From: a virus
Taxonomy: Duplodnaviria > Heunggongvirae > Uroviricota > Caudoviricetes
Length of the DNA stretch: 40,471 nucleotides
Reading direction: 5' to 3' (one strand)
Virus record (IMG/VR): IMGVR_UViG_2565956717_000010
Location: 1 to 40,471 of that record
Both the position numbers and the translations under genes were made by a program. Each line of letters opens with the position of its first letter. The stretch's first letter is position 1. The notes below the pieces were generated by a model that searched no databases, had not been told where the DNA came from, and saw only the letters and a list, made by a program, of their open reading frames with translations. Below, one piece after another: positions 532-26,159 of the stretch.

Positions 532-1071
532 ATGAAGAAAGTTTTTCTTTGCGCCATCTTAGCCTCCTTAAGCTATCCGGCTATCGCCTCATCATTGCAG
601 GATCAACTCTCGGCTGTCGCAGAAGCGGAACAGCAAGGTAAAAATGAAGAGCAAAGGCAGCATGACGAATGGGTCGCGGAGCGCAACAGGGAAATCCAGC
701 AAGAGAAGCAACGTCGCGCAAACGCCCAGGCCGCGGCTAATAAAAGAGCGGCAACGGCAGCAGCGAATAAGAAAGCTCGTCAGGATAAACTGGACGCCGA
801 AGCCACTGCGGACAAAAAACGCGATCAAAGTTATGAAGATGAGCTACGTAGCTTAGAGATTCAGAAACAAAAACTGGCGCTGGCGAAAGAAGAAGCCCGC
901 GTTAAGCGCGAAAACGAATTTATCGATCAGGAACTGAAGCACAAAGCTGCGCAAACCGATGTGGTGCAATCTGAAGCTGACGCAAACAGAAATATGACTG
1001 AAGGCGGTCGCGATCTGATGAAAAGCGTGGGTAAAGCAGAAGAGAATAAATCAGATAGCTGGTTTAACTAA
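532..1071 (+). CDS. yfgI: Host secreted coiled-coil protein (YfgI-like)
   Basis: AGGAGG RBS 6 nt upstream of ATG; N-terminal signal peptide; charged K/E/R/Q/A-rich body; 179 aa as I recall for E. coli YfgI. Symbol is from memory only. Confidence 0.55.
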   Translation: MKKVFLCAILASLSYPAIASSLQDQLSAVAEAEQQGKNEEQRQHDEWVAERNREIQQEKQRRANAQAAANKRAATAAANKKARQDKLDAEATADKKRDQSYEDELRSLEIQKQKLALAKEEARVKRENEFIDQELKHKAAQTDVVQSEADANRNMTEGGRDLMKSVGKAEENKSDSWFN

Positions 1072-1109
1072 ACGATGTTAGTAACTTCAAACCTATAATT
1101 CTTTAGGAT

Positions 1110-1142
1110 AAAAAACCCTCTGTAGTAACAGAGGGTTTTGTT
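1110..1142. terminator. Bidirectional intrinsic terminator at host/prophage junction
   Basis: A6 then 8-bp stem CCCTCTGT/ACAGAGGG (1116-1123 / 1128-1135) with 4-nt loop, then TTTTGTT; U-tract available on both strands. Lies downstream of yfgI (+) and of Rz (-). Confidence 0.6.
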
Positions 1143-1265
1143 CATTCATAGTGCAGGGTCAAATCATTTCCACTCAATTATTTACGATAACCATAACCAA
1201 TTGAGTGATAACATTTTTCCAAATCTCAATTTTTCCCGTACCGTTTTATATACCGTCACCGGAAA

Positions 1266-1763
1266 TCAGTGCCACGATTTTTGCTTCTTCAGTGAATCGT
1301 ATTGCTGCTCGCAGAATTCCCCTGCGATACGATACTTTTCAGCCTCAGCTGCTGTTGCGTTGTAAACTCGGTTGCTTTCTTCAAGCATGTCGGCGAGCAC
1401 ACCGATGACCTTGCTGGCTGGCGTGCCAGGGGGGAAAGATCCGGTATAGTGTTCGGCGAGCCGCCTGGTTTTGTCAAGCTCGGCGCGCATGCTGTCAGCA
1501 GCGGAATTAGCATACTCAGCATCAGCACGCGCCGCATCGATACGGGATTGTGCTTCACGTTCAATTTGTGTTTTCTCCTGCTCACGCTGTGACCTTAACT
1601 TATCATCAGCCTGTTTCTGATCTTCCTTCGCCTGCGCATACCCGGCATCGTACTGACGGATGCCGTGCACATTCCAGGCAACAACTCCTGATATGACCAG
1701 AACAGCAAGCATCGCCACGATAAGTAACTGTTTACGGTATGCTTTTACAAATGCCCAGATCAT
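1266..1763 (-). CDS. Rz-like i-spanin (lysis)
   Basis: N-terminal TM helix followed by charged coiled-coil-like region; start overlaps endolysin stop (ATGA); last gene of lysis cassette. Confidence 0.65.
1289..1537 (-). CDS. Rz1-like o-spanin lipoprotein, embedded in Rz in another frame
   Basis: ORF wholly inside Rz; translation [17 protein letters not shown] has a lipobox (LTAC) followed by a Pro-rich segment. Start codon choice uncertain and RBS weak. Confidence 0.4.
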   Translation of the reverse strand: MRRVLMLSMLIPLLTACAPSLTKPGGSPNTIPDLSPLARQPARSSVCSPTCLKKATEFTTQQQLRLKSIVSQGNSASSNTIH

Positions 1764-2389
1764 ACCGCCAGTACCTTACTTGCTGTGATGTACCGCGCAC
1801 GCCGGTCGTCGATACCGTTTCTGCCACCATTGATAATCAGAGTTACACGTGCAATATCGCCGGTATACTTCATGCATCCTTTGCTGGCGAAGAACCACGC
1901 CGCGCTACGAGCCGCATATTCGTCCTGCGCCAGCAGTTCAGGGCTCTCCAGCAGGTCAACCTTCAGACCGTTTCCGCAATCACGATAGTTATTCAAACCG
2001 GTAATCTGGATAAGTCCGCGCCCTCGGTAATTCCAGCCATCACCAGGGGCATTGTTCCCCATGCGTTTGCTGTATACCAGATTTGCGATCGCGCGCTGGC
2101 GCTCAAGTGGCAATGGTGGTTCACCAGCACGGCGCCCCAGTGCATTAGCCTGCCCCTGAGTGAGACGCCCAGCCCGAACGAAGTTAGCCAGTCCGCTGAC
2201 ACTGTAGTTGAAATTCTCCTGCAACCTGGTGAAGCCCCCAGACTCATGCCCGACTTGAGCAATAAACATTGCCTGATCTTCTGCTTTGCTGATACCAAAC
2301 TCTTTCATCGCAGAAGTTATATGCGAGAACCAGCGTGCGGCCAGTGCCTCGCTGATACCAGCAGCTCGCTGGAATTGTTTAATCTCCAT
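1760..2389 (-). CDS. Endolysin, glycoside hydrolase family 19 (chitinase-like lysozyme)
   Basis: GH19 signatures visible in translation: [11 protein letters not shown] (catalytic Glu region) and [15 protein letters not shown]; start set at internal ATG 2387-2389 (MEIKQF) with GAGG RBS. Confidence 0.8.
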
Positions 2390-2687
2390 GTTTAGACCTC
2401 GATACTTTAAAAATTTGAACGACGTTACCGCGCGTTTTAATAACCGCAGCCAGCATGACAGCGTTGATAATGACCTCAGATAAATCCACAGCCATTGGCG
2501 TACGTAACCAGATTGCATAGGCGACTCGAACAGGAATACTGGCCGCAGCAACAATCAGGAAATAAGCAAGCCATCCTCCCCACCTTCGATGTTGAGAGCC
2601 GTTACGCCGGAATGTGACAACGCGAATTGCTATGCCAGTGCAAATAACTGCATTGGTGATAAGCAAAAAAAACTCATGCGTTACCAT
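2379..2687 (-). CDS. Holin/antiholin-like small membrane protein
   Basis: 102 aa with two hydrophobic helices; GGAG RBS; sits between a holin-like gene and the endolysin. Confidence 0.5.
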
Positions 2688-3078
2688 CGTCTTTTCTCCC
2701 CGGAATTAACTCGCGTGGATTATCGGAACGGTGATAGAGCCATATACCAATACGCACAGCGACAATTGCTGACACGAATGCGCCTGCAGAGAAAACAATC
2801 CCTTTTTCAAAAGAGTCCTGCGTGATGGTAGGGATCAGGCTGGCTATGCCGATAAGAATTGATGCTGCTGGTTTGTAAAAGAGAAGGCCACAAAGAAAGC
2901 TGAGCATCGAAAGGAGCACCCGGCGACGGATGGGGTACTCTACTGCAGAGGTAACAAAAATTACCGCCCCAGCCAAAGCCCCTAAAGCAACCTCCGGAGG
3001 GACACCTGCAATAACCGCAGCAAGAGAACCAAAACTAAGCAACTGATTTAATTGCTCACTTGTTACTTGAGCAGACAT
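2674..3078 (-). CDS. Holin-like membrane protein
   Basis: 134 aa, three to four hydrophobic helices; AGGAGA RBS 6 nt upstream of ATG; first gene of lysis cassette. Confidence 0.5.
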   Translation of the reverse strand: MSAQVTSEQLNQLLSFGSLAAVIAGVPPEVALGALAGAVIFVTSAVEYPIRRRVLLSMLSFLCGLLFYKPAASILIGIASLIPTITQDSFEKGIVFSAGAFVSAIVAVRIGIWLYHRSDNPRELIPGRKDDGNA

Positions 3079-3360
3079 ACTTTCTCCTGTTTACTATCTA
3101 TAAGCCAGTCAATTATTGATGACTAACCCCCGCATAGTAAACCATATATGAATCATTATTGTTCCATATCATATATCTCAATAAAAGTACTAATGATTTT
3201 ACAGAACGAGCCAGCAGAGTGAGGGCAGTTGTACAGGAACCATAGACTTAATTTTGTATTTAATAATGCTATGGTGTAATAAACCTGAACATGTATTTAA
3301 AATACGTACTGATTCATGATAGAATTCAAGGATAACTTTTCACAAACTCCGTTTTTGATA

Positions 3361-3387
3361 CCCGCAAAATATTGCGGGCTTTTTTTT
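3361..3387 (+). terminator. Strong intrinsic terminator (plus-strand polarity) between lysis cassette and tailspike
   Basis: Stem CCCGCAA/TTGCGGG with 4-nt loop followed by T8 on the plus strand. On the minus strand the hairpin is preceded by an A-tract, so it is not a classical minus-strand terminator. Confidence 0.5.
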
Positions 3388-6300
3388 AACGTTCTTCCAG
3401 AGACTGAATCCGCTCTTTTATCTTATCCATTTCTCTGCGCTGCCATGCTGCCTCGATATAGAATAAGAGATCAGGTCTGACCCCCCATCTAGATCCTGCT
3501 GGCGTTATTTCAACGCGCTCAATGATGTCTTCCATTACCATCACTGGATTATCATCCTCATCAACAATAATGCTCCCGTCATTATCAGTCAGCGGCATTT
3601 CCCTTTGGCCAGTAATGACGTCATCATATACTGCGGGATAATCGTCATAGCAAAGAAACGCATAGCGGCATGTTGTGCTTTCTTCTTCCATGAGTCCGTG
3701 AGAAATAAGAACATCACGAAGTTGCTGCGCGATTACACCATGATGTATCCTCGCCCCTTCTTCCCCCTTTATAGCGACAGCGTTCAGCCATTTATAAGCG
3801 ATATACCTGACGTCACCCCAGGCATCCAGCAATGCTTCGTCAGGAGAGACCGGCTCTGTCTTTAATGTTCCGTCACTGGTAACCACAGGATTGGAGCCAA
3901 GATAAACTGTCGAGAACCTGTTTCCCGGACCACCAAGAGCATTTACATTATCAAGATAAGGTTTAACATCTCCGTTCTCAAAAAGATGTTCGAGTGCGTT
4001 ATATACCGCGCGACGTGGAGTACTGCTTCCGGAACCATGCAACGTTATCATTGCACCATCTGCTGAAGACGTTGTTTCACCGCCGCTAACGATTAATCTC
4101 TGAGCGGTAACATCATCAGACGGTACTTTCTTCGCAATAATGGCGTAATTACCCTCAAGTTTGACTTCCGCGCGAACTTGTCCTGATGTACCTGCATGGA
4201 CAGTCAGTGACTGGACGGCAACATCATCTGTGAAATCAACGGGTACAGGAACCGTCCTCACGCCTGACGTCGACATAAAAGTAGGAAGCGTTCTGTTAGG
4301 AGTGGCTCCGTAGACAAAATCCCTTGAAACAAATTCTTCCTGTTTAATTTTCACCCTGAAACAATACAAATCAGCCGGGTGACCATCGTGAACATAAGGA
4401 TATTTTCTGTTGTTATCCCCTATGCTCCATGGGTTTAGAAAGTCTTCCCCACCGAAAATGTAGTACAGCCAGTTGTCTTTGATACAAACTGAACCAACAC
4501 CAACCGCAGAGTTAACTATTCCGCCCTGATAAATCTGATCAGTAACATTAACCCACTCTACATTATCCAGACTCCACTCATTGACGTTAACTCTGGTCAT
4601 AAATGTTCTTGGATAATTTCCTGCATAACGGTTATCAGGTTCTCCTCCTTCCCACTCACCAAATGCGCGCTCACTGCCAAAAATAATCAGCTCATCGCCA
4701 ACTTTGGCAAAAGGAAGGTTTGAGTGATGAACATTATTTGGGAAGCGAAGAGAATTCCATGATGTACCTAAATCAGAGCTTCTGTGCAATGAACTACCGG
4801 GTTGAGTACTTAATGTCCCCCTGGTCGTCAGATACAGAATGCCATCATAATATTTTACACATGGCTCAGATGCATTCGCCTCATATTCTGCAGGTATGCG
4901 TCTGCGAACAAAGCTACCAGGAGAACCGAAAGCATCAGAGAAATAGAGTATCCCAAGCTCGCGTGGACCAATATCACCATTATGGTAGCCAACAGCAAAA
5001 CTGTTATCGCTAATCGTCGCAAAACTGTGAATCTCAGTAACAGGAGTGCTTCCGTCAACAAAAGAAGGAATAGTTCCAAGACTGGTTTTTCTCCATGGTG
5101 ACGAGTGAAATGATGTACCAAAACTCCAGTATCTACCCTCGTTATTCTGATCCACATCCTGGGTATTTTGCGTCGTAACTGTAAAAGTATTTTTATCAAT
5201 AACAGTAGTCACCGTCATATTCCCGGTAACACCTGTAACACCAGAGTTTGAGAAGTTGACAAAATCACCAGCAAATAATCCGTGATCAGTAATGCGAATA
5301 TAAGCGACTTGCTGATTTGCTGCTTTCGTTATACCACCATAAACGCGAAGGCTGCGACTCATTGGGCGATCCCACAACTCTGCAACCTGCAGTTTATTTC
5401 CGCTCACGGTCCGCGTCTCAATTACAGCAAAAAGGCGATTTCTGACAACCCCCATACTCATGCAGTGATAGTTAACTGTGGGATAGTTTTCATGTAAATC
5501 TGTAAGCCATTCCGGCGTTGTCCAGGTCTTCCCGTCATCTCCTGAGCGAACCCATGCAACATGGAGGTTATTTACACCATGGCGGTCTCCAGCCATAAAA
5601 GGCGCATAGATGACATTGTCATATACAAACGTTTTATCCTGCGTCCAGGCGTTGTACCACGGTGTATCTGTAATTTTAAATAACTCTCCCTGGATAAAAT
5701 CTTCAGAAGCATAAAAAAGAGGCTGGCCCGGTATTCTCTCAAATAAAAAACGAGCATTTTTAAATCGACTGACATCCGGAAGAGTTGATACTTTAAAAGT
5801 AAGCCCTAATCCGTCAATTCTATAACCTGGAGATGAGGCTTCAAGGCACGCGCTTATTGCAGTGGAATCGTCATTTATACCATCACCAACAGCTCCAAAA
5901 TCTTTGGGGCTAATAGCATCACGCATTTTATCCTGGAACGTTCGGTACACAGCCCCAGAACCATACTGAATAAACCAACCAAAACCACCAACAACCCCGG
6001 CGATTGCAGCATCGACATAATTACGCATTGAGCGATTATTTACAGCGTCCTGCTCAAATGATGGATCTGCAAGGTTAGAAATTTTGTTTTGCTTTGCATC
6101 GTAATATTTTGCAAGCAAAGATGGTTTCATCAATGCACGTCTGAACCACCCAAAACATTGCTGGATCAGCATCGTCAGGTAGTCAAAGGCATCTTCATGC
6201 ACTTCGGGGAAAAATTTTCCCTGATTGCGAAGGTCTGTCTCCTGCACTACATCAAGCACACGATCTATCGTAATTCGCCATCCAGTAGCAAGCGGAGACG

Positions 6301-6505
6301 GAAGAACCACAGAACCGCCACTATAAGTGCCCGCCCCAGTTACCGTATAACCGGTATCCAGAACCAATTCTGTTACGTTTCCGTTCAGGTCAGACACCTG
6401 AACAACCAGGTCTGATTTTCTGAAAATTCGAAAAGTATACGGAAACGATGTCGTAACGCCGTTACCGGTGTATTCGTTGTGGTCAACTTCGGTTGAGACC
6501 GTCAT
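3386..6505 (-). CDS. Tailspike with T7 gp17-like N-terminal adaptor, sialidase-fold (endosialidase-like) domain and C-terminal intramolecular chaperone domain
   Basis: Two Asp-box motifs (SGDDGKTW, SSDLGTSW); strong resemblance, from memory, to the K1F endosialidase catalytic region (GELFKITDTP, NYHCMSMGV); C-terminal S74-like domain with SDGTLK cleavage-type motif; N-terminus EYTGNGVTTSFPYTF resembles T7-type fibre adaptors. Confidence 0.8.
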   Translation of the reverse strand: MTVSTEVDHNEYTGNGVTTSFPYTFRIFRKSDLVVQVSDLNGNVTELVLDTGYTVTGAGTYSGGSVVLPSPLATGWRITIDRVLDVVQETDLRNQGKFFPEVHEDAFDYLTMLIQQCFGWFRRALMKPSLLAKYYDAKQNKISNLADPSFEQDAVNNRSMRNYVDAAIAGVVGGFGWFIQYGSGAVYRTFQDKMRDAISPKDFGAVGDGINDDSTAISACLEASSPGYRIDGLGLTFKVSTLPDVSRFKNARFLFERIPGQPLFYASEDFIQGELFKITDTPWYNAWTQDKTFVYDNVIYAPFMAGDRHGVNNLHVAWVRSGDDGKTWTTPEWLTDLHENYPTVNYHCMSMGVVRNRLFAVIETRTVSGNKLQVAELWDRPMSRSLRVYGGITKAANQQVAYIRITDHGLFAGDFVNFSNSGVTGVTGNMTVTTVIDKNTFTVTTQNTQDVDQNNEGRYWSFGTSFHSSPWRKTSLGTIPSFVDGSTPVTEIHSFATISDNSFAVGYHNGDIGPRELGILYFSDAFGSPGSFVRRRIPAEYEANASEPCVKYYDGILYLTTRGTLSTQPGSSLHRSSDLGTSWNSLRFPNNVHHSNLPFAKVGDELIIFGSERAFGEWEGGEPDNRYAGNYPRTFMTRVNVNEWSLDNVEWVNVTDQIYQGGIVNSAVGVGSVCIKDNWLYYIFGGEDFLNPWSIGDNNRKYPYVHDGHPADLYCFRVKIKQEEFVSRDFVYGATPNRTLPTFMSTSGVRTVPVPVDFTDDVAVQSLTVHAGTSGQVRAEVKLEGNYAIIAKKVPSDDVTAQRLIVSGGETTSSADGAMITLHGSGSSTPRRAVYNALEHLFENGDVKPYLDNVNALGGPGNRFSTVYLGSNPVVTSDGTLKTEPVSPDEALLDAWGDVRYIAYKWLNAVAIKGEEGARIHHGVIAQQLRDVLISHGLMEEESTTCRYAFLCYDDYPAVYDDVITGQREMPLTDNDGSIIVDEDDNPVMVMEDIIERVEITPAGSRWGVRPDLLFYIEAAWQRREMDKIKERIQSLEER

Positions 6506-6609
6506 GTTAAATCTCCAGATAGTCGCAGCACCCGTTGCGCCGCATATCTGGTTATTCTATTACCTGGAAAACCACATATGGATAGAAAGGCTGTAAATAC
6601 GAATAGATA

Positions 6610-6624
6610 TTACCTTTCAGGTAA
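6610..6624. promoter_or_regulatory. Operator-like palindrome TTACC-N5-GGTAA (site 1)
   Basis: Perfect inverted repeat TTACCtttcaGGTAA flanked A..T; in divergent region between tailspike start and the LexA-box gene. Confidence 0.45.
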
Positions 6625-6663
6625 TTTGCAAAACGTGCTGGATAGCAAACAAATTATTTGCTA

Positions 6664-6679
6664 CTGTATAAATATACAG
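6664..6679. promoter_or_regulatory. LexA (SOS) box
   Basis: CTGTATAAATATACAG is a perfect CTGT-N8-ACAG palindrome with AT-rich centre, 22 bp upstream of ATG 6701; overlaps -10-like TATAAA. Only such box found in the window. Confidence 0.7.
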
Positions 6680-6700
6680 TTATTGCATGGAGAAGATAAG

Positions 6701-6958
6701 ATGCAGCAGTATCACTATCCACTGGAAGACGGATTTACCGAAAGGATTCACACGCCGGGAGGCGTCAGGTCACTGGTGGAGGGATCGCACTTGATGAAAT
6801 TACTCCGGGATCTCGATAAGGATGGATTTAATGTCGATGGCCCACTTGCCGAACTGACTGCACTGATTAACTACGTCACCAGCTCACAGATGTCTATGCA
6901 GGATCTGCAAACACATCTCGACTATTGTGCCGAACAATTACGAAAGCAAACCAGATAA
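6701..6958 (+). CDS. Small protein homologous to the C-terminal domain of the adjacent antirepressor (SOS-controlled antirepressor candidate)
   Basis: 85 aa from ATG 6701 with GGAG RBS; C-terminal ~60 aa align with the C-terminus of the 7276-7926 product (GVRSLVEGSHLMKLLRDL...DLQTHLDY vs GVLGLTENSLLMNLLNQL...DIQTHAEY). Confidence 0.6.
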   Translation: MQQYHYPLEDGFTERIHTPGGVRSLVEGSHLMKLLRDLDKDGFNVDGPLAELTALINYVTSSQMSMQDLQTHLDYCAEQLRKQTR

Positions 6959-7275: not shown

Positions 7276-7926
7276 ATGAACGCTCAACTCATCCCCGTAT
7301 TCAACGGCACTATATCCAACGAAACCGCTCTTCTCGTTAATGCCCGTGATTTACACACTTTCCTCGATGTGGGTAAGCGATTTGCTTCGTGGATTGTCGA
7401 ACGAATTTCTGAATATGGTTTCGTTGAAAATCAAGACTTTATGATTATTTCCCAAGTTCGGGAAAAAATAGGCAGAGGCCGTCCTGCAAAAGACTACCAC
7501 CTCACCCTCGATACAGCCAAAGAGCTGGCGATGGTCGAGCGTAACGAAAAAGGTCGTCAGGTACGACGCTACTTCATTGAATGCGAGAAACGTTTAAGAC
7601 AACAAGAAACAAAAGTGGAGAAGGTCTTGTCAGGCTTCATGCCCGCCATTATGGAGGCGATCAAGCTGGAAGACAAAAAAGAATACAGTGCCCCACTGAA
7701 GCCCGGCTACCGTAGCCTGATTCATTCGCCGTCTGGTGTTCTCGGCCTGACGGAGAACTCACTGCTGATGAATCTGCTGAACCAGTTACAGGACGACGGG
7801 CACGACGTATCGGGCGCGGCGGCGGAGCTGACCACCATGTTCTGCTACATCGTCGGTGTGAGCAAATGCCTGCGTGATATCCAGACCCACGCGGAGTACA
7901 TCAACGACAAGGCAGGGTTCTTCTGA
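7276..7926 (+). CDS. Antirepressor, AntA-type N-terminal domain
   Basis: N-terminal LIPVFNGT...LVNARDLHTFLDVGKRFASWIVERISEYGFVENQDF matches the AntA/AntB antirepressor pattern as I remember it; GGAG RBS; C-terminal domain shared with 6701-6958. Confidence 0.7.
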   Translation: MNAQLIPVFNGTISNETALLVNARDLHTFLDVGKRFASWIVERISEYGFVENQDFMIISQVREKIGRGRPAKDYHLTLDTAKELAMVERNEKGRQVRRYFIECEKRLRQQETKVEKVLSGFMPAIMEAIKLEDKKEYSAPLKPGYRSLIHSPSGVLGLTENSLLMNLLNQLQDDGHDVSGAAAELTTMFCYIVGVSKCLRDIQTHAEYINDKAGFF

Positions 7927-8033: not shown

Positions 8034-8243
8034 ATGGGATTTTGGTTCGCTCGTACAAAAACGAGGGATAATGCACCCAGCCCTCAGGCAAAAAATGCAG
8101 AAGTTCCGGCGTCAGCGCAGGTTAACAAGCGTGGTGGAGTATATATCTCATCACAGCAAATTTCTGAGCTTCCTGAGGTTAAGGAGATGCGTCGTCTCGC
8201 TGCTGCAATTGTTAAACAGGATCTTGCCACTGTAAGGAAATAG
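8034..8243 (+). CDS. Hypothetical small protein, first gene of cargo operon
   Basis: 69 aa; GAGGAGGAG RBS immediately upstream; stop overlaps the next start (TAGTG). A competing 74-aa ORF in another frame (8011-8235) lacks an RBS. Confidence 0.4.
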   Translation: MGFWFARTKTRDNAPSPQAKNAEVPASAQVNKRGGVYISSQQISELPEVKEMRRLAAAIVKQDLATVRK

Positions 8244-9109
8244 TGTTGTTAGCTCTTCTAATTATCCCCATTCTGGTTAGTGGTTATATTATGATAACCG
8301 CTAACCAGTATCATTATTTCCGTTTATACCGACATGAAGGCCAGCTTCTTTATATGAAAGTAGCTGCATTAGGTACATATTGCCTTGTTGCATCAGTAAT
8401 AATTGCAGCCGCTATAAAATATAAATGGCCTGATTTTCACCTAGTTCACGATATGGTGGAAACTTTTAATGTAACATCAAAACCAGAAACAGATAGAATT
8501 TACATGTGGCTGCTTCTTCTCTCAGCCACATCCATTTGCTTCTCTTTGTGTTATGTGTCTGTTGTGTGGGTGAAAGATTTTCTTCTTGGTTGTTTTTATA
8601 AACGTGATATTTACGAGCAAAAAACAGAGGCAATGAAGGCCAGAGTACTGCGAAAAACTTACTCGCAAGGTTCTTTAGACTTACTATTGCTTGATGCTAT
8701 TGAATCGGATCCTAAACGACCAATGTTGATTACTTTATCATCAAACAAAGTGTATGTTGGAATAATAAATGGTTCTGGTGAACCAACGGAAAATCAGGGT
8801 CCGCATCAGCACATATCTTTTGTTCCTTTAATGTCAGGATACAGGAACAAAGAAAACTTATCTGTCACATTCACTAATGCTTATCCAGGAGAAATACAGG
8901 TCAAGCGGACTGCAGCAATAAGAGGAATTAGCAGAAAGAAAGTGCTAGGACTTGAGATCATGGTGTCTATTGACGAAATAAGTTATATATCATGGTTTGA
9001 TTTTGAAGTATATAAAGCAACAAATAACAAAGTAGAATCCAGGGGGCACGTTATTCGTGTTACCAAAAATGGAAGAAATATATATCAAAGAAATAGCAAA
9101 AAAGAATAG
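8243..9109 (+). CDS. Hypothetical membrane protein (three N-terminal TM helices plus ~170-aa soluble domain), AT-rich cargo
   Basis: 288 aa; AAGGA RBS; three hydrophobic segments in first ~110 aa; markedly AT-rich codon usage compared with flanking structural genes; terminator directly after stop. Confidence 0.6.
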   Translation: MLLALLIIPILVSGYIMITANQYHYFRLYRHEGQLLYMKVAALGTYCLVASVIIAAAIKYKWPDFHLVHDMVETFNVTSKPETDRIYMWLLLLSATSICFSLCYVSVVWVKDFLLGCFYKRDIYEQKTEAMKARVLRKTYSQGSLDLLLLDAIESDPKRPMLITLSSNKVYVGIINGSGEPTENQGPHQHISFVPLMSGYRNKENLSVTFTNAYPGEIQVKRTAAIRGISRKKVLGLEIMVSIDEISYISWFDFEVYKATNNKVESRGHVIRVTKNGRNIYQRNSKKE

Positions 9110-9399: not shown

Positions 9400-9858
9400 C
9401 TACTTGCGAAATCTTTCTTTACCCTTCCAGCCAGTAGATGTTAGTTCAGGATGAATGGTTCCCAATATAAAGCCAACCATAGCGGAGCGAGGATCTTCTA
9501 TTTTATCCGTTAATTCTTCGGCATAACTCACAGGCAACCAAGCAACAAGATCACCAATCCTCAGCTTTGGTCCTTTGCTGTAAGATGAATCGGCAATAAC
9601 AAAAAATCCACCATCAGCTGAGCACACCTTCAGCATTGCCCTTTGTCTTCCAGAATCTAGCAAAACTGGCTGTTCCCCACTGGGACCAGGTATGATGATG
9701 GCTGGCATTGGTTTATTGGCTGAAAGGCTTGTGTCAAGATACTTACACGCATACTCAAAAGCTGAAAAGTTATCCTTAAAGATAAGAGGTTGAATTTTAT
9801 TGCTAACCTCCTTACCACCGATTAATCTGTTGATCATCTTCTTGAACATAAAGGTCAC
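9400..9858 (-). CDS. Hypothetical protein (cargo)
   Basis: 152-aa ORF with own terminator; no recognisable motif; start lies only 3 bp from a divergent gene, so start or reality is uncertain. Confidence 0.4.
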   Translation of the reverse strand: MTFMFKKMINRLIGGKEVSNKIQPLIFKDNFSAFEYACKYLDTSLSANKPMPAIIIPGPSGEQPVLLDSGRQRAMLKVCSADGGFFVIADSSYSKGPKLRIGDLVAWLPVSYAEELTDKIEDPRSAMVGFILGTIHPELTSTGWKGKERFRK

Positions 9859-9861
9859 CTA

Positions 9862-10302
9862 ATGATTAAGCCGATGCACGCTATTACAGCTACCGTTTTG
9901 TTTATCCTACCAATTTTTTCGTTTGCAAACGACATATGTTTTAAGAATTTAATAAATGAGGATATGTGTGCACATGCAAACAAAATCGCATCAGAAGCAG
10001 GAAAGTCACTTCCCATAAAATTGAATGATAATATGTCTATTGTTTCAATAAATGCAATACTAAACAAACTTTTAGTTGTAGCGCATCTTAATTACAACAA
10101 CAGCTATTTATCAAAAGTTTATAATGGTGATATAACCTTAGAAAATAAATTAAAGAGTGTGATGCGAAATTATTCAAAATCGAGCATTTGCTCCAACAGG
10201 CAAATGAAAGCATTTATTCACCTTGGCGGAGAGATTGAGTATAGGTATGTATTTAGTGATGGCAATATATTTGATACATACGCCATCACTAATTGTGAAT
10301 AG
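9862..10302 (+). CDS. Hypothetical secreted protein, strongly AT-rich (cargo)
   Basis: 146 aa; N-terminal signal peptide (ATVLFILPIFSFA); several Cys; AT-rich like 8243-9109. Confidence 0.45.
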   Translation: MIKPMHAITATVLFILPIFSFANDICFKNLINEDMCAHANKIASEAGKSLPIKLNDNMSIVSINAILNKLLVVAHLNYNNSYLSKVYNGDITLENKLKSVMRNYSKSSICSNRQMKAFIHLGGEIEYRYVFSDGNIFDTYAITNCE

Positions 10303-13300
10303 CTATTTCATCTGCTCTTCAACTTTATTTAGTAACGGTGATATCGCCCACAGGTTCTGAAAAGGTAGCATTTTACGGACCGCGTGGGTTTGCTGGCTGT
10401 CAAATTCTCCGTTAAGTACACCATTCGCAACCGTCGCGGCATCACCGCCAAGATCAAAGGTAGGACCAAGTAAAGCACCAATAGCATTACGACTCTGAAA
10501 CCTTGATACCGGAGGCGCACCAAACATCGCGCCAAGACCAAACCTACCGCCGCTTATGTTCTCAACGGTATTCAGCGGCTCAGAGAGCCAGCCAAGCATT
10601 CCGCCCCGGTCGATCCCCTCTTTCACAAGGTTATTCCAGCTGTAGTCGATATCGCGACCGCTTAACTTCTGTTTCATCATATATACCATTGAGCCAAGCG
10701 CAATCGTGCCAAGCGCACCAAGATAGAATGCAGCATCGCCCTGCTGGATACCAGATACCAGCACCCTGTTATGCTGTGCGAAGATAAACGTTTTGAACTG
10801 CGTGATCATCTTCCAGCCTTCTTTACTAAAAAACAGCGGTGTATCACCTACGCCAGGCGTTACAATCACTGAGTCTACATCTTTCAGCACTGCAGACTGG
10901 AAAATCTCTCTAGCGAAACGGTCATCCCACAGATGACTATGCCCGGTTAACAGCCCGTCCATATCCTCTCCGTGCTTCCCGAATTGCTCCCCGATTCGGC
11001 GCAGAACATCTTCATTGATGCCGACCTGTGCCATCTTCCGCATTTCACTTTTGGAGAGCGTGCCACCAGCAGAAACTTGGCGAGCCGCGTCAAGTATCCT
11101 CGACTGCACTATCATCCCGGACCATGATTTAAGTGCGCTGTTCCACTGATTCATCAGCGTCCAGTTACCGAATTTCTGCGTCATCCAGTTCAGACCTCGC
11201 TCAGCGGCGCTTCTCCGGCTATAGGGGTCAGTAAGATCCGCTATAGCCTTTGTACGCGTAGACAGGACATAATCAAGCCCAACGGCCATTTCTCGCAAAT
11301 CCCTAGTTGCAATTTTCACTGAGTCCATATTTTTAAGCATGCTTACCATTGGTCCGAGAGATTTTCTCAGGCCATGCTGCATCATCGGTCGCATCAGATC
11401 AGTTGCAGCGGAGACAGTCATTCCACCAAGCAAACGGAGGAAGTTAATATTCCTAGCAACTCGCCCGGCACGAACAAAGAAACTGCGTGGATCTTGAGGT
11501 GCGCCGTAAGTACCAAGCAGTCGATCACGCATAGCCGTAATATCCCTAATATCAGCCTCCCGTTGCTTCTCAAGAACTGCACGTCGTTTAGGTGTTTTAG
11601 CCTCTTTTATTAGCCGGGTATATTCCTCACTAACCTGACGGATTTGCTCCCCCATATCTTTACGGCCAAACTGCGCAGTCAGCTCAATTTCTGGTGCCAC
11701 CTGCCGGAGATAACTTTCCATGATGTAGTTAACATCTGATTCAAGAAAATCTTCTATACGCTCATCAGGAATAAGCAGCGTTCTGCTTTTAGTGAAACCA
11801 GCCCGACCAACGAGTCTCTCTGGGATAATATCGGCTGGTACAAGCCCGGAAGGTGCGCCTATTATTTTATTCACGATCTCGTCAGCAGCGTCCTCTGCTT
11901 CCTCTCGGGATAGAGGCTCCATCTGCTTCAGTGCTCGTTCGCGGCTTGCATTCAGCCTTGTGGTTGAATTTGCCCGTTTTTGCAGTCGGCGAAGCTCAGA
12001 ACGATATTTCCGTGGATTATCCAGCAACTCCATATGGCGCTGATAGACAGGAAGCTCACTCTTTGCCTGCGCTATATCATCAAGGCGTGTTTTAAGGTCA
12101 GAGCTTTCTTTCATCATTCTTGCCTGAAGTTTTTCTGATGAAGTCTCGGCCAACTCTTTTTCTATTCTTGTAAGACGCGCCTGTGTGTCAGTCTCCTGAG
12201 ATATAAGCTTATTTCGTTTATCCAGTTCTTCCATGAGTAGAATTTTTTTACCAGACCATTTCTCCGCTTCAGCGATTTCACTAGCGAGAGCATCAGCGCG
12301 CGGTGCCGATTCCTCTGCAGTTTTTAGCAATGAATTTATCCTTTCAATTCGCTGACCTGCTTTGTCAGCACCTTTGGCACTAATCCCTTGTATCCAGTTG
12401 GCAATTCGCCCTCTGAATTCAGTGCGGTCGGAAAGTATCTTATCGAACTTATAAATGCGGGGAAGATAACTTTTCGCCGTCACGACATCGATATCCTCAG
12501 GAAGGATCCCCAGTTCCTGCATACGGGCTTTTGTGGTCTCGAAAATGGGGCGGATTCTGGCGGCTGCTTGTGAAACCTCAGGAATATCACTCTGATCACC
12601 ACGGCGCATAGCCATGCCAACAGCTTCATTGAAATCAATAAAGTTCATCCTCTTCACGCCGCGGGCGCTAACAGATTTGCTGTACTGCTGGTAAGCATCA
12701 CGAGTGGCTTCCATCTGCTTATAAAGCATGGCGTCGTATTGCTTAATCTTAGTCTCGACTGCCGTAAACGTAGCCAACCCCTCATCATTTTTGGCGAAGA
12801 AATAGTTATTTTCGGCAAGCTGCTGGTTAATCTGACGGGAGACAAGAGATGGTGATTGAGCCAAGCGGCCAGCAGGAGTGACACTCAACGTTTTGTTAGC
12901 AAGTCCAAGTCCAGCGAGCTGTTCCTGATCGAGTGTGGTATTGAAAACCTGAGCTGCACCAATGCTTTGAGGAGAATCCATACCTCGCAAATGATTACCT
13001 ACTGAGTTAACCACTGCCTCGCGCGCGCTAGGTCCAGCAAGTAGCTGTGCACCAGCACCAAGGATCCCACCAACGAGAGCATCAACAACAACGTTCGATA
13101 CGCTCTCCATCGGTGAGCGAGCTTCCTGAGTGGCCTGTAATGCGGCTTCTGATACTCCCCCACCAGCAGCATTCGCCAGGGCAAAACGCCCTGCCGTCTC
13201 AGCAATACTTCCTCCACGCGCTACCGCCCCTACAGGGATAAACATTGCAGCCACATTAACCGGGTCTATCATTCCCATTGCTAAGCTTGAAATAGTACCA

Positions 13301-13692
13301 GCACCACCCATTTCAGATAGATATTCTCTATCTGTTCTTTGCTTATCGATTCGATGTTTAATTGCCATTGTTTCTTCATGCGAACCGGAGTTGATAAACG
13401 AATCTGCAAAATCTTCATAGCCTTTAATATCTGCTGCATCGTTATCAAATGGGTTATATCCTTCAACCCTGTCAAACTGACTGAAAGGAGCACTGGCAAT
13501 AAAGCTACCCAGCGTGTTATCTATACGAAATGCTGCTTGTCTAGACCTTTGAACGCGTTGATCACTGGTAAATGGGTTCACAGCAGAAAGCAAAGAAGGT
13601 GTTTCCATATAGAAATTACTGTCATCAGGTGCTGCTATTTGCTGAATATCCTCGCCAAGCAACTCTTTAGGATCCTGTTCATATATCGGCAT
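10303..13692 (-). CDS. Large internal virion / DNA-ejection protein (T7 gp16-like position)
   Basis: 1129 aa; long coiled-coil middle; last and largest of a translationally coupled internal-protein series upstream of the tail fibre, as in T7 gene order. Confidence 0.6.
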   Translation of the reverse strand: MPIYEQDPKELLGEDIQQIAAPDDSNFYMETPSLLSAVNPFTSDQRVQRSRQAAFRIDNTLGSFIASAPFSQFDRVEGYNPFDNDAADIKGYEDFADSFINSGSHEETMAIKHRIDKQRTDREYLSEMGGAGTISSLAMGMIDPVNVAAMFIPVGAVARGGSIAETAGRFALANAAGGGVSEAALQATQEARSPMESVSNVVVDALVGGILGAGAQLLAGPSAREAVVNSVGNHLRGMDSPQSIGAAQVFNTTLDQEQLAGLGLANKTLSVTPAGRLAQSPSLVSRQINQQLAENNYFFAKNDEGLATFTAVETKIKQYDAMLYKQMEATRDAYQQYSKSVSARGVKRMNFIDFNEAVGMAMRRGDQSDIPEVSQAAARIRPIFETTKARMQELGILPEDIDVVTAKSYLPRIYKFDKILSDRTEFRGRIANWIQGISAKGADKAGQRIERINSLLKTAEESAPRADALASEIAEAEKWSGKKILLMEELDKRNKLISQETDTQARLTRIEKELAETSSEKLQARMMKESSDLKTRLDDIAQAKSELPVYQRHMELLDNPRKYRSELRRLQKRANSTTRLNASRERALKQMEPLSREEAEDAADEIVNKIIGAPSGLVPADIIPERLVGRAGFTKSRTLLIPDERIEDFLESDVNYIMESYLRQVAPEIELTAQFGRKDMGEQIRQVSEEYTRLIKEAKTPKRRAVLEKQREADIRDITAMRDRLLGTYGAPQDPRSFFVRAGRVARNINFLRLLGGMTVSAATDLMRPMMQHGLRKSLGPMVSMLKNMDSVKIATRDLREMAVGLDYVLSTRTKAIADLTDPYSRRSAAERGLNWMTQKFGNWTLMNQWNSALKSWSGMIVQSRILDAARQVSAGGTLSKSEMRKMAQVGINEDVLRRIGEQFGKHGEDMDGLLTGHSHLWDDRFAREIFQSAVLKDVDSVIVTPGVGDTPLFFSKEGWKMITQFKTFIFAQHNRVLVSGIQQGDAAFYLGALGTIALGSMVYMMKQKLSGRDIDYSWNNLVKEGIDRGGMLGWLSEPLNTVENISGGRFGLGAMFGAPPVSRFQSRNAIGALLGPTFDLGGDAATVANGVLNGEFDSQQTHAVRKMLPFQNLWAISPLLNKVEEQMK

Positions 13693-16439
13693 TATTTGCC
13701 CCCTGCGTATATATTGCTCGGAAGGTAATTGGCTGAACCATAACCGAATGGTTTGGTCAGATCTGGAGGAGTATATCCATCTTTATTGCTGAACTGCGGC
13801 AGCGGATTGCCTTCTCTCCGCACTCTAGCCTCATCAACACGTTGTTGCTGGAACTGAATGGTTTGCCTGTACATTGGAGATGTCAGCTGATCCGGCTTGA
13901 AACGAACAGGGAGACCATTTTCTCCAATATAATTTCTCGGTTCTATCGCTCCGTTTGCGTCAGGCTGTAAAACCATAACAGCATAACTCCTATCCCTTGC
14001 CGTAAGGCCATCAGAAACAAGTATTAAGTCCGTATCACTGCGAGGACCGCCAAAGGATTTTGATTTAAGCTCGCGTTTTTCCTGCTCCCACTGCCCCTGT
14101 ATCCAGTTACCAGCACCATTATTTACTCCGTACAATGCCTCAGGTGCATACTTCATAACCTCTGCTTTGCCATTAACCGTAGAAACTCCCCAGGTGGTTC
14201 TGATCATGGCATTGGTCATTTTCTCAGCCTGTTCTGCATCGCCACCTGTCTGTACAAAGTTAGCATCGTAAATTGTCTGGTAATCTCGCTGATAGGCCGC
14301 ATTTGATTTTCCTGGATCGGTAATATCCGGAGACCACGAACCAAAGGAAGTCAGACTGCTGGCGTTATTTTGTGCAGCAGTTGCCCTCGCCGCGACATAT
14401 TTTTTGTCTCGCATGGCAGTGGAAAGCATCTGTTTCATTCGGTCATCCTGTTGGAACACCTGGCTGTAAGCCATATCAACAGCCTTATCCTCCGGCACGC
14501 CAGCGCGGGAATAATCGTAAACCTTGCCGTAAAATGCCATCGTACTTTTATCAAGTGTTGCCGCTGCCGCCGGATTATTATCGAATAACTGACCGTAGAA
14601 TTTTGCCATCGGGACAACCAGCGCAGGATCTCTTGATGTTGCTCCACTGTTAAGCATTGTTTTAACCTGAGTTGGTATCATGCCGCTTTTAGTTGTGACG
14701 GTGACCAGTGTATTGATGCTCTGCGGATCAGATATGGAAAACGAAGGCGCGATATCCTGCGCGAAATAACGGTCTACCGCTGCCTGATTGTTTTTGTCGT
14801 TCGGGTCCAGCGGGAAGTTATTTTGCATTGAAGACACGAACCTGTTTCTTCCCTGCTGAATCTCCCACTCCCTATCCATCTCTTTAAATTTGGCCTGCAT
14901 TTTCTCCCAGCGTTGCTGGTTAGCTGCAAATCCAGGAGCGTTTGGATCCTGTGGACGTAAACGTTCAAGAATGTCTTGTCGTCCTTCTGGAGTGAGGTCT
15001 TTAGCGGCACCAATGACACCTCCATATTGTATCTGCGCCTGCATATCCTTCCACTTCATAGCGCCAATGCGCGGACCATTGGCCCGGATAAAATCGTCCT
15101 CAGAAGGTAACTTCTCAGGTTTCAATCCTTCATCAAGGGCTGAATATGCATCTTTAACTACGGTGCTAAGCTGGTCCGCATACTGCTGGCGGTACTGATT
15201 TCTCAGCTCATTAGCCTGCCTCAATGCCTGTATTTGCATTTGAGGGCTCATAGCATCAAATGCCGCATTGCCCGTATAACGCTTAGGTGAATCAAGGTTA
15301 GTTAGACCAAGGGCTGCCGAGATACCAGTTTCAAGCTGTTCGGTGCTATAAGGCATACTGCCATTTTCGTGTTTAATAATCCCAGCACATAAAGCAGCTA
15401 GTGTCTTTGGGTTAGAGATATCAAGCTGATCATTCTCCCCAACACCAAGCTCACCACACAATGCCCTAATATAAGCATCCGTATTATTACCATCACTAGC
15501 CGGAGCATAGCGATTAACAATCTCGCTAACGGTGTCATAGCCTTGACGCTGGTAAGACAACATATTTTTACCCAACGCGCGGATTCCATGCTCAGGGGTA
15601 GCAAACGTTGCAAAACGTCCATCGCTACCGATCTGACCTTCCCACGGGTTAGATTTGCTCGCTTCAATATTACCAGGGTTATTATTACGTAAACCACGAG
15701 CATCCAATGAATTACCATGTGATATTGCACGACTCACACCATCAAGATCCCCTGGCTCTCCATTAACCTGAAGAAACTCGTTGTATTTTTGAGCGATATT
15801 TCCTATCCATGCTTGCTGCCCCATTTGTTCCTTGAGCTGAGTTTTCTGCTGAACACGCCACTCATCAGGAAGCCCATGCGCATCAGCGTATTGATCAATA
15901 GATTCAAATCGCTGCTTGGCTAAATCGACAAATGCTTGGTTATCGCTATATAGCCCCGCAGACTGAGTGACAGCCAATGCATTTCCTGACAAATACGTTT
16001 GATCTTGGAATTGCTGAAACTGCCCAACTTCATATCGACGTGCCTGATTGTAATAAGACTGCATAGACTGCTGGAGTTGAAAGGATAATTTATTCCTTTC
16101 CTCACTTTCAGGAATTGAGCCTAATAATGCCTGAGCCCTTTCCTGCATATTTTTCATAACAGCGTCACTCTGACCAAGAGCGTTTTTACCCTGTTTAGAA
16201 ATCAGCCCACTTTCAGGGTTGTTAATCTGGTCATCTGCAAATTGGTTAAATTGCAGTAACGCCTCCTGGGCCATAGCAACATTCGCTTTCTGCCTGGCTT
16301 CACCATATGCCACCGCATACTGATCTGCGACATTCGCCAGCACCTGACCTGCTTGAGGAACATCGAAGATCTGAAAACCACCGGTTTGCACACCACGACT
16401 TTGCACCTGGCGTCCGGATGTAGTAGGAACAACAGGCAT
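13692..16439 (-). CDS. Internal virion protein (T7 gp15-like position)
   Basis: 915 aa; start overlaps upstream stop; position in T7-like order. A segment (RNNNPGNI...GRFATFATPEHGIRA) may be a cell-wall-acting domain but I cannot assign it. Confidence 0.55.
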   Translation of the reverse strand: MPVVPTTSGRQVQSRGVQTGGFQIFDVPQAGQVLANVADQYAVAYGEARQKANVAMAQEALLQFNQFADDQINNPESGLISKQGKNALGQSDAVMKNMQERAQALLGSIPESEERNKLSFQLQQSMQSYYNQARRYEVGQFQQFQDQTYLSGNALAVTQSAGLYSDNQAFVDLAKQRFESIDQYADAHGLPDEWRVQQKTQLKEQMGQQAWIGNIAQKYNEFLQVNGEPGDLDGVSRAISHGNSLDARGLRNNNPGNIEASKSNPWEGQIGSDGRFATFATPEHGIRALGKNMLSYQRQGYDTVSEIVNRYAPASDGNNTDAYIRALCGELGVGENDQLDISNPKTLAALCAGIIKHENGSMPYSTEQLETGISAALGLTNLDSPKRYTGNAAFDAMSPQMQIQALRQANELRNQYRQQYADQLSTVVKDAYSALDEGLKPEKLPSEDDFIRANGPRIGAMKWKDMQAQIQYGGVIGAAKDLTPEGRQDILERLRPQDPNAPGFAANQQRWEKMQAKFKEMDREWEIQQGRNRFVSSMQNNFPLDPNDKNNQAAVDRYFAQDIAPSFSISDPQSINTLVTVTTKSGMIPTQVKTMLNSGATSRDPALVVPMAKFYGQLFDNNPAAAATLDKSTMAFYGKVYDYSRAGVPEDKAVDMAYSQVFQQDDRMKQMLSTAMRDKKYVAARATAAQNNASSLTSFGSWSPDITDPGKSNAAYQRDYQTIYDANFVQTGGDAEQAEKMTNAMIRTTWGVSTVNGKAEVMKYAPEALYGVNNGAGNWIQGQWEQEKRELKSKSFGGPRSDTDLILVSDGLTARDRSYAVMVLQPDANGAIEPRNYIGENGLPVRFKPDQLTSPMYRQTIQFQQQRVDEARVRREGNPLPQFSNKDGYTPPDLTKPFGYGSANYLPSNIYAGGK

Positions 16440-17014
16440 CAGTAACCTCCTATTTTGAATCGGGAGTCAGAATTCATAAAACCTGAGTTAGATAACATTG
16501 GCGTCCCACCACTAGATGTACTTCCTTTAGAGAACGGACTCCACGTCCCACCAAACATCTGGTACGCACCGTATGCCTTCAGAGGCGCAGTGAGTAAAGT
16601 TGTTGCTGCTCCCACATTCCCCTGTTTACGGGCTGAACTGGCTTCTGCTTTATAGTTGGCAGCCTGAACCTGATAACCGTAAGCCTCGCGTTGCGCGTTA
16701 TTCACCGTCGTCAGAGAATCAAGAGCGCCAAACTGGGCAGTGTCGCCAAATATATCCAGCGCGTTACCTGTAGATAAATCAGCGCCGGTAGCCCCCATTG
16801 TCGCCGCCTGTGTACCAAGCCGCTGTCGGGTCTCTCTGCGCCGTTGCTCAGCTTCAGCGTTACCTCTGTTTATTGCATCATTTGCCTGAGCTGTGGCTAT
16901 ATCTGCGTTCGCTTCTGCAACCTTCGAGGCATACTTTCCCTGTTGGTACTGGGTGTATGCCTGAATGCCACTCATGGCGAGCATTGCGCCACCAGCAATA
17001 ACCGGATCGCACAT
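16439..17014 (-). CDS. Internal virion protein (T7 gp14-like position)
   Basis: 191 aa, Ala/Gly/Gln-rich; translationally coupled (TAATG-type overlap) with neighbours. Confidence 0.45.
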   Translation of the reverse strand: MCDPVIAGGAMLAMSGIQAYTQYQQGKYASKVAEANADIATAQANDAINRGNAEAEQRRRETRQRLGTQAATMGATGADLSTGNALDIFGDTAQFGALDSLTTVNNAQREAYGYQVQAANYKAEASSARKQGNVGAATTLLTAPLKAYGAYQMFGGTWSPFSKGSTSSGGTPMLSNSGFMNSDSRFKIGGY

Positions 17015-26082: not shown

Positions 26083-26159
26083 GTGGCATTAGCTCAGTTG
26101 GACAGAGCAACCGCCTTCTAAGCGGTTGGTCGCAGGTTCGAATCCTGCATGCCACGCCA
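26083..26159 (+). tRNA. tRNA-Arg (anticodon UCU)
   Basis: 77 nt, hand-folded cloverleaf: acceptor GTGGCAT/ATGCCAC, D-stem GCTC/GAGC, anticodon stem ACCGC/GCGGT with loop CTTCTAA, T-arm GCAGG-TTCGAAT-CCTGC, discriminator G, encoded CCA. Acceptor stem differs from the host argU I remember. Confidence 0.85.

Follow-up and report, generated by a model that had tools for sequence, protein, structure and literature searches.

We analysed a stretch of viral DNA of 40,471 nucleotides (nt) (IMG/VR record IMGVR_UViG_2565956717_000010, positions 1 to 40,471; hereafter the window), which holds a whole Uetakevirus-like prophage beside the host genes yfgH and yfgI (1-1071), and within it the gene at 3386-6505. 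An earlier, sequence-only reading had called this gene a tailspike with sialidase Asp boxes and an autoproteolytic chaperone domain, probably a depolymerase of the K1-type polysialic acid capsule. The interval is exactly one uninterrupted open reading frame (ORF) on the minus strand, with an ATG start and 1039 codons; the plus-strand frames over the same interval are ridden with stops when translated, and coding on that strand was ruled out. The Asp boxes and the SDGTLK motif sit where the sequence-only reading had put them, and the strand, which it had left unstated, can now be added. On the evidence set out below, we are highly confident that the gene encodes the capsule-degrading, receptor-binding tailspike of a temperate podovirus of the epsilon15-like (Uetakevirus) kind, which is complete and integrated beside yfgI in what is very probably a K1 strain of Escherichia coli. 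The gene and its ribosome-binding signal lie as follows.

3386-6505, minus strand: complete tailspike coding sequence, 1039 amino acids (aa) plus stop (stop codon at 3386-3388), from the ORF list and its translation
6513-6516, minus strand: Shine-Dalgarno sequence GGAG, 7 nt 5' of the ATG, read from the sequence

The encoded protein carries five Pfam domains (PF12218, PF12217, PF12195, PF12219 and PF13884), all of which exceed their curated cut-offs and follow one another in the canonical order. The propeller match spans the whole of the PF12217 profile (positions 1-367 of 367). The sequence contains two strict Asp boxes (S-x-D-x-G-x-[TS]-W), where 0.0017 would be expected in each shuffled protein. 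Each aligns with its counterpart in endoNF, the endosialidase of coliphage K1F, in agreement with what had been read from the sequence. The domains and boxes of the endosialidase body are:

5693-5893, minus strand: endosialidase N-terminal extension (End_N_terminal), aa 205-271; Pfam PF12218, E 8.2e-32
4343-5692, minus strand: six-bladed beta-propeller catalytic domain (End_beta_propel), aa 272-721; Pfam PF12217, E 1.4e-233, and alignment to endoNF 1v0e
5111-5359, minus strand: beta-barrel inserted in the propeller (End_beta_barrel), aa 383-465; Pfam PF12195, E 3.2e-46
3878-4342, minus strand: triple-beta-helix stalk domain (End_tail_spike), aa 722-876; Pfam PF12219, E 8.4e-78, and alignment to the endoNF stalk
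5522-5545, minus strand: Asp box 1, SGDDGKTW, aa 321-328, aligned with SGDDGQTW of endoNF
4757-4780, minus strand: Asp box 2, SSDLGTSW, aa 576-583, aligned with SRDIGQTW of endoNF

The best matches in PDB for the body of the protein (phmmer, aa 205-876) are the endoNF constructs 1v0e and 3gvl (E = 0, 1047 bits), with 65.6% identity over these residues, and the next-best structure is the phi92 endosialidase 4hiz (E 1.6e-271). The likeness to the K1F enzyme, noted in the sequence-only reading, is upheld by direct comparison. The domain order is the same in both proteins, and the active-site triad, the Asp boxes and the Ser/Lys dyad are common to them. Compared with endoNF, a member of glycoside hydrolase family GH58 (CAZy), the window protein has a seven-residue insertion (FVDGSTP, aa 481-487), and the acidic loop of its chaperone domain is longer. 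The phages themselves differ: K1F is T7-like and lytic, and its spike has a true gp17 N-terminus, unlike the protein described here.

The sequence-only reading had proposed pairwise alignment with characterised endosialidases as one way to judge its claim, and in the alignments with K1F and CUS-3 the catalytic residues of endosialidases are present. The active-site triad of endoNF, named as Glu581/Arg596/Arg647 in PMC2955717, was mapped onto the window protein by way of the endoNF alignment, with the following codons.

4865-4867, minus strand: Glu547, corresponding to the catalytic Glu581 of endoNF
4820-4822, minus strand: Arg562, corresponding to Arg596 of endoNF
4667-4669, minus strand: Arg613, corresponding to Arg647 of endoNF

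At Arg613 both the query and wild-type endoNF read GSERA, whereas the mutant endoNF chain 3gvj reads GSEAAEN. In addition, His350 and Tyr325 of endoNF are kept. With all four endosialidase Pfam domains well above threshold and the Glu/Arg/Arg triad conserved, the identification as an endosialidase (endo-N-acetylneuraminidase, EC 3.2.1.129) is supported, and the activity predicted from the sequence is that on the alpha-2,8-polysialic acid (K1) capsule.

The propeller, barrel, stalk and chaperone are near-identical to those of SiaK1 (ABQ88383.1/CAJ29292) from CUS-3, a P22-like Lederbergvirus prophage of E. coli K1 RS218. For CUS-3 siaK1, the GenBank entry gives endo-alpha-sialidase activity as inferred from direct assay (evidence code IDA; Stummeyer et al. 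2006, PMID 16689790). The shared region is a single tract.

3415-5807, minus strand: tract of 2393 nt, 99.46% identical to CUS-3 siaK1 (gene nt 699-3091), from megablast, blastn and the allele comparison

Over residues 234-1030, seven of 797 amino acids differ from CUS-3 (A266V, G826R, T866I and A891T, with three more at the very C-terminal end), none of them at a mapped functional residue. Outside this region the two proteins part company: residues 193-233 are only about 50% identical, the last 13 or so residues are divergent, and over the first 190 or so residues they are unrelated, CUS-3 having a P22-type head-binding domain and the window protein an epsilon15-type anchor. The seven differences from an assayed enzyme could be taken to mean that the window protein has kept the endosialidase fold but is inactive or altered, being either a polysialic-acid-binding lectin spike or an enzyme for another polymer (O-acetylated K1, alpha-2,9 or mixed-linkage). 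We regard such a loss or shift of function as very improbable, given that the mapped catalytic residues are intact, that the substitutions fall outside the triad and the dyad, and that alleles of the gene circulate in many K1 genomes as well as in the viable phage ZX5. By analogy with endoNF and the CUS-3 enzyme, the window protein is best read as an endosialidase, and should be enzymatically active.

The C-terminal part of the protein consists of the chaperone domain and its cleavage motif.

3389-3877, minus strand: C-terminal intramolecular chaperone, aa 877-1039, predicted to be self-released; Pfam Peptidase_S74 and PDB 3gw6
3860-3877, minus strand: cleavage motif SDGTLK, aa 877-882, with the Ser877/Lys882 dyad, aligned with ANGERK of 3gw6

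Pfam Peptidase_S74 (PF13884) matches aa 877-937 (E 1.7e-10), and the endoNF chaperone construct 3gw6 is matched with E 1e-93 in the full-length search and with E 8.5e-95 over the whole chaperone region. Ser877 faces the Ala found in place of the serine in the 3gw6 construct, and Lys882 faces its Lys five residues on, which indicates that the Ser/Lys self-cleavage dyad (S-x4-K) is kept. These residues correspond to S911 and K916 of endoNF. The autoproteolytic chaperone with an SDGTLK site, as first read from the sequence, is thus confirmed as a domain with a matching dyad, and by analogy with endoNF and CUS-3 it would be expected to free itself by cleavage at Ser877.

The N-terminal part of the protein is of a different type from that of either CUS-3 or K1F, and is divided into an anchor and a linker. 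The anchor-encoding 5' part of the gene is also shared, together with the region upstream, with another Escherichia phage.

5996-6505, minus strand: virion anchor of the epsilon15/Uetakevirus tailspike type with a T7 gp17-like fold, aa 1 to about 170; tblastn, PHROG, PDB and Foldseek
5894-5995, minus strand: linker from the anchor to the endosialidase body, aa 171-204; alignment to the Kluyvera homologue P0010
5910-6905, minus strand: anchor-encoding 5' part and upstream region, 97.7% shared with phage EC.W1-9; blastn and the EC.W1-9 annotation

In tblastn searches the anchor is 64-72% identical to those of Salmonella E15-like phages, SPC32H, phiV10-like phages and O157 typing phage 10, and these matches stop at aa 165-173 or thereabouts. 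The anchor also matches PHROG tail and tailspike families, and in PDB it finds the N-terminus of Dpo31/Dpo36 (E 1e-35 with the full-length query, 5.5e-33 with the N-terminus alone). The relatives with this anchor, which include epsilon15 gp20, share the same virion module as well. Their catalytic parts, however, are beta-helix depolymerases of O-antigen or capsule (according to annotations and PF12708), whereas the window protein has a sialidase propeller. The closest anchor, 97% identical, is that of Escherichia phage EC.W1-9, whose spike runs into a different catalytic domain. Altogether, the anchor homologues carry varied domains behind the same anchor (PF12708, PF18668, PF27114 and PF12218), which is the usual modular pattern.

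The sequence-only reading had described the N-terminal 190 or so residues as a T7 gp17-type adaptor, and here the fold and the sequence family give different answers. The Pfam domain Phage_T7_tail (PF03906) scored 15.8 bits (E 0.011), below its cut-off of 25.2 bits, with only aa 135-161 aligned, and a PDB sequence search with the N-terminus gave no T7 chain even at E <= 10. On the other hand, 29 of 29 anchor homologues match PF03906 weakly (E <= 1, the best at 5.3e-7). In a Foldseek search, the AlphaFold model of aa 1-209 found the N-termini of T7 gp17 (7boz_a with E 2.7e-4; 9jz0_b with a root-mean-square deviation of 2.5 Å over 83 columns; 7ey9), as well as the fibre N-termini of the PhiM1, Kp7/Kp9 and P-SCSP1u tail complexes. 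In this model the predicted local distance difference test score (pLDDT) exceeds 90 for residues from about 8 to 85 only, and the linker is of low confidence. Since both sequence tests failed while the family-wide weak matches and the fold search passed, the T7 gp17 label is right at the level of fold and wrong as a statement of close family.

A homologue from Kluyvera cryocrescens (P0010, 277 aa) was observed to be 79% identical to the anchor and linker over its first 209 residues. It carries the Pfam domain End_N_terminal and departs from the window protein after about aa 205. Outside E. coli too, Uetakevirus-type anchors may be linked to bodies of the endosialidase kind.

From these domains and from what is established for endoNF and CUS-3, the following course of action can be proposed for the tailspike. 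The spike would form a trimer, docked on the tail by the N-terminal 170 or so residues. The C-terminal domain, as an intramolecular chaperone, would help the trimeric stalk to fold and would then cut itself off at Ser877 by means of the Ser877/Lys882 dyad. On meeting a cell, the spike would bind the alpha-2,8-polysialic acid capsule and cut it endolytically, with the inserted beta-barrel and the stalk providing further polysialic-acid binding, and the virion would in this way tunnel through the capsule to the outer membrane.

The tailspike as such is already known, and near-identical copies have been sequenced, annotated and described. The same gene is found as ORF7 (QTH80017.1) of phage vB_EcoP_ZX5 (Uetakevirus; MW722083), with 99.7% nt identity across the gene and its flanks and two amino acid differences. 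This match of the tailspike region, to a phage whose record is classed as Uetakevirus, is the basis for assigning the window phage to that type. Against ZX5 and the RefSeq prophage copies together, the differences amount to one or two residues, the window having R229 and the others K229. R229K is also the single difference from the protein of the avian pathogenic E. coli (APEC) strain APEC O1 (WP_000218907.1), which RefSeq names 'endosialidase catalytic beta-propeller domain-containing protein'. The ZX5 gene has been described as a T7-like N-terminus followed by an endosialidase and an endosialidase chaperone (Pathogens 2022, PMC9782041). ZX5 shares the neighbours of the gene, namely the lysis cassette downstream and a small ORF and an anti-repressor upstream, while the rest of the prophage is mosaic between the two, most clearly at the internal virion protein genes (9404-16532).

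ZX5 is a viable free phage that lysogenises. In the megablast comparison, however, it matches only 24.3 of the 40.5 kb of the window, so the viability of the window prophage cannot be read from it. This leaves room for the view that the tailspike is a hitch-hiking relic in a defective prophage, no longer used in infection. We consider that view extremely improbable. The ORF is uninterrupted, the main phage modules are all present as intact ORFs, and among 12 alleles of the shared 2393-nt tract (window 3415-5807 compared to loci L001-L003 and L007-L014) there are only 25 variable sites. The virion module comprises the internal virion proteins, tail tube proteins, capsid and portal, and a terminase is also present. 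The sequence-only reading had remarked on T7-like tail genes upstream of the spike, and as a description of architecture this stands, with tail tube A/B-like proteins and gp13/14/15/16-like internal virion proteins in the module; the phage as a whole belongs with the temperate podoviruses related to epsilon15 and not with the T7-like phages. An early region and the integrase (39215-40471) close the prophage, which also has recombination and replication genes.

No megablast match to ZX5 was obtained for window positions 9404-16532. Two large genes for internal virion (ejection) proteins of 915 and 1129 aa, with transglycosylase-type PHROG matches, are found there, in place of the three genes (837, 600 and 824 aa) at the same locus in ZX5 and APEC O1. 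The module for ejection proteins has thus been swapped, the prophage being similar otherwise.

We used the distribution of the gene among E. coli genomes to characterise its hosts. Full-length copies with 99.8-99.9% nt identity were found in 72 of 5426 complete genomes, including APEC O1, APEC O18, SF-468, cerebrospinal-fluid isolates and strains labelled O1:K1:H7. The gene is present in IHE3034 as well. APEC O1 has a complete K1 locus (kpsFEDUCS-neuSECABD-kpsTM). The neuS gene was found in 329 genomes, and in six of the six tailspike carriers that were cross-checked for it (SF-468, APEC O1, APEC O18, BCE049, IHE3034 and ST95-32). The sequence-only reading had held that the host, or a recent host, carries a polysialic acid capsule, which agrees with these genotypes, and the host of the window is very probably K1-capsulated. 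The gene would thereby mark its host as a K1-capsulated E. coli of the extraintestinal pathogenic (ExPEC) or APEC type.

Three points weigh against the reading of the gene as the active K1 spike of this phage in a K1 host. That the host of the window itself is K1 is deduced from near-identical prophages in other genomes, the capsule locus lying outside the window. The best whole-prophage match in the genome collection reached only 98.8% over 91% of the first 25 kb. Finally, R837, S848 and Q853 are residues of the polysialic-acid binding site of the endoNF stalk, and Q853 is a Met in the window protein, although the CUS-3 enzyme, which is active, has Met there too.

In CUS-3 the spike gene is directly followed by neuO, a phase-variable gene for a capsule O-acetyltransferase, and the window prophage has its lysis cassette at this place.

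1266-3078, minus strand: lysis cassette of two holins, a GH19 (glycoside hydrolase family 19) endolysin and an Rz-like spanin, directly downstream of the tailspike; PHROGs and synteny with APEC O1 and ZX5

Beyond the cassette lies the end of the prophage, followed by yfgI and yfgH. No neuO was found in the window by a search for heptanucleotide repeats or by blastn and tblastx with the CUS-3 neuO region, and modification of the capsule by the prophage in the manner of CUS-3 was rejected. With neuO absent, nothing suggests that the prophage alters the capsule; nor does anything else in the window point that way, and the earlier proposal that it may affect capsule biology finds no support. A scan of accessory ORFs around the tailspike and in the early region for defence or conversion functions (Pfam, PADLOC) returned ordinary phage functions only.

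CUS-3 and the window phage are both temperate podoviruses resident in K1 strains, and CUS-3 and ZX5-like prophages often share one K1 ExPEC chromosome. The 25 variable sites of the shared tract are distributed in a characteristic way between the two spike types. Differences fixed by type occur at the borders of the tract only (gene nt 729 and 3078-3084), while three sites inside it (1890, 2424 and 2476) vary within both types. The two copies that share the APEC O18 chromosome show no difference over nt 797-2972. These patterns are compatible with the idea, which we advance tentatively and as a real possibility rather than a settled point, that the catalytic, stalk and chaperone module, beyond being shared by descent, forms one allele pool that has repeatedly been swapped by homologous recombination between CUS-3 (P22-like Lederbergvirus) and ZX5-like Uetakevirus prophages. 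With so few variable sites, those polymorphic in both types may also have arisen by recurrent mutation. If the shared allele pool is real, prophages in one chromosome would keep updating one another's receptor-binding modules.

Double lysogens with both CUS-3-type and Uetakevirus-type spikes were observed in IHE3034, APEC O18, EC69, F11, ST95-32, MS20659, N1 and N54. In strain 2022E04-002 (NZ_CM132301.1 1953413-1957619, H130), a CUS-3-type endosialidase gene is broken by an element of the IS3 family of insertion sequences.

That K1 phages exchange endosialidase domains as modules has been textbook knowledge since Stummeyer et al. 2006 and is reviewed in PMC5380687. The Uetakevirus spike adds a second temperate phage lineage, besides CUS-3, with an endosialidase. 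The only mildly new angle is an evolutionary one, in that a 2.4-kb module is more than 99% identical across two phage genera in the same chromosomes. Nature thus provides a clear case in which tailspike modules have been exchanged, and in which gene conversion between prophages may still be going on. Endosialidases are of use as reagents and are candidates for therapy directed at capsules, but the window allele is practically the CUS-3 enzyme. Otherwise the finding has little import beyond annotation.

Several minor features surround the gene. A G+C-rich stem-loop at 3361-3378 directly follows the tailspike stop codon, with a T-run on the plus strand and an A-run before the stem on the strand of the gene. 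It looks like a terminator for transcription in the opposite direction, or a bidirectional one. Around the gene as a whole, a promoter and terminator scan gave weak consensus matches only. On the other side of the gene, the region up to the ejection-protein genes contains:

6578-6958 and 7276-7926, plus strand: two anti-repressor-like ORFs upstream of the tailspike and on the opposite strand; phrog_450 in both, Ant phrog_377 in the second
8243-9109 (plus strand), 9400-9858 (minus strand) and 9862-10302 (plus strand): three ORFs between the anti-repressor block and the ejection-protein genes; PHROG families of unknown function only

The anti-repressor ORFs beside the tailspike recall the immI/ant region of CUS-3, where ant lies on the same strand as the spike gene. 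The three further ORFs, which gave no Pfam or PADLOC match, may be moron or cargo genes. The ordinary functions returned by the Pfam and PADLOC scan of accessory ORFs were RecT, a YqaJ exonuclease, an MT-A70 methylase, a DnaT-like protein, Ead/Ea22 and a phosphoesterase. In addition, a tRNA-Arg gene (anticodon TCT) lies inside the prophage at 26083-26159 on the plus strand, and the APEC O1 prophage likewise has a tRNA-Arg just before the portal gene.

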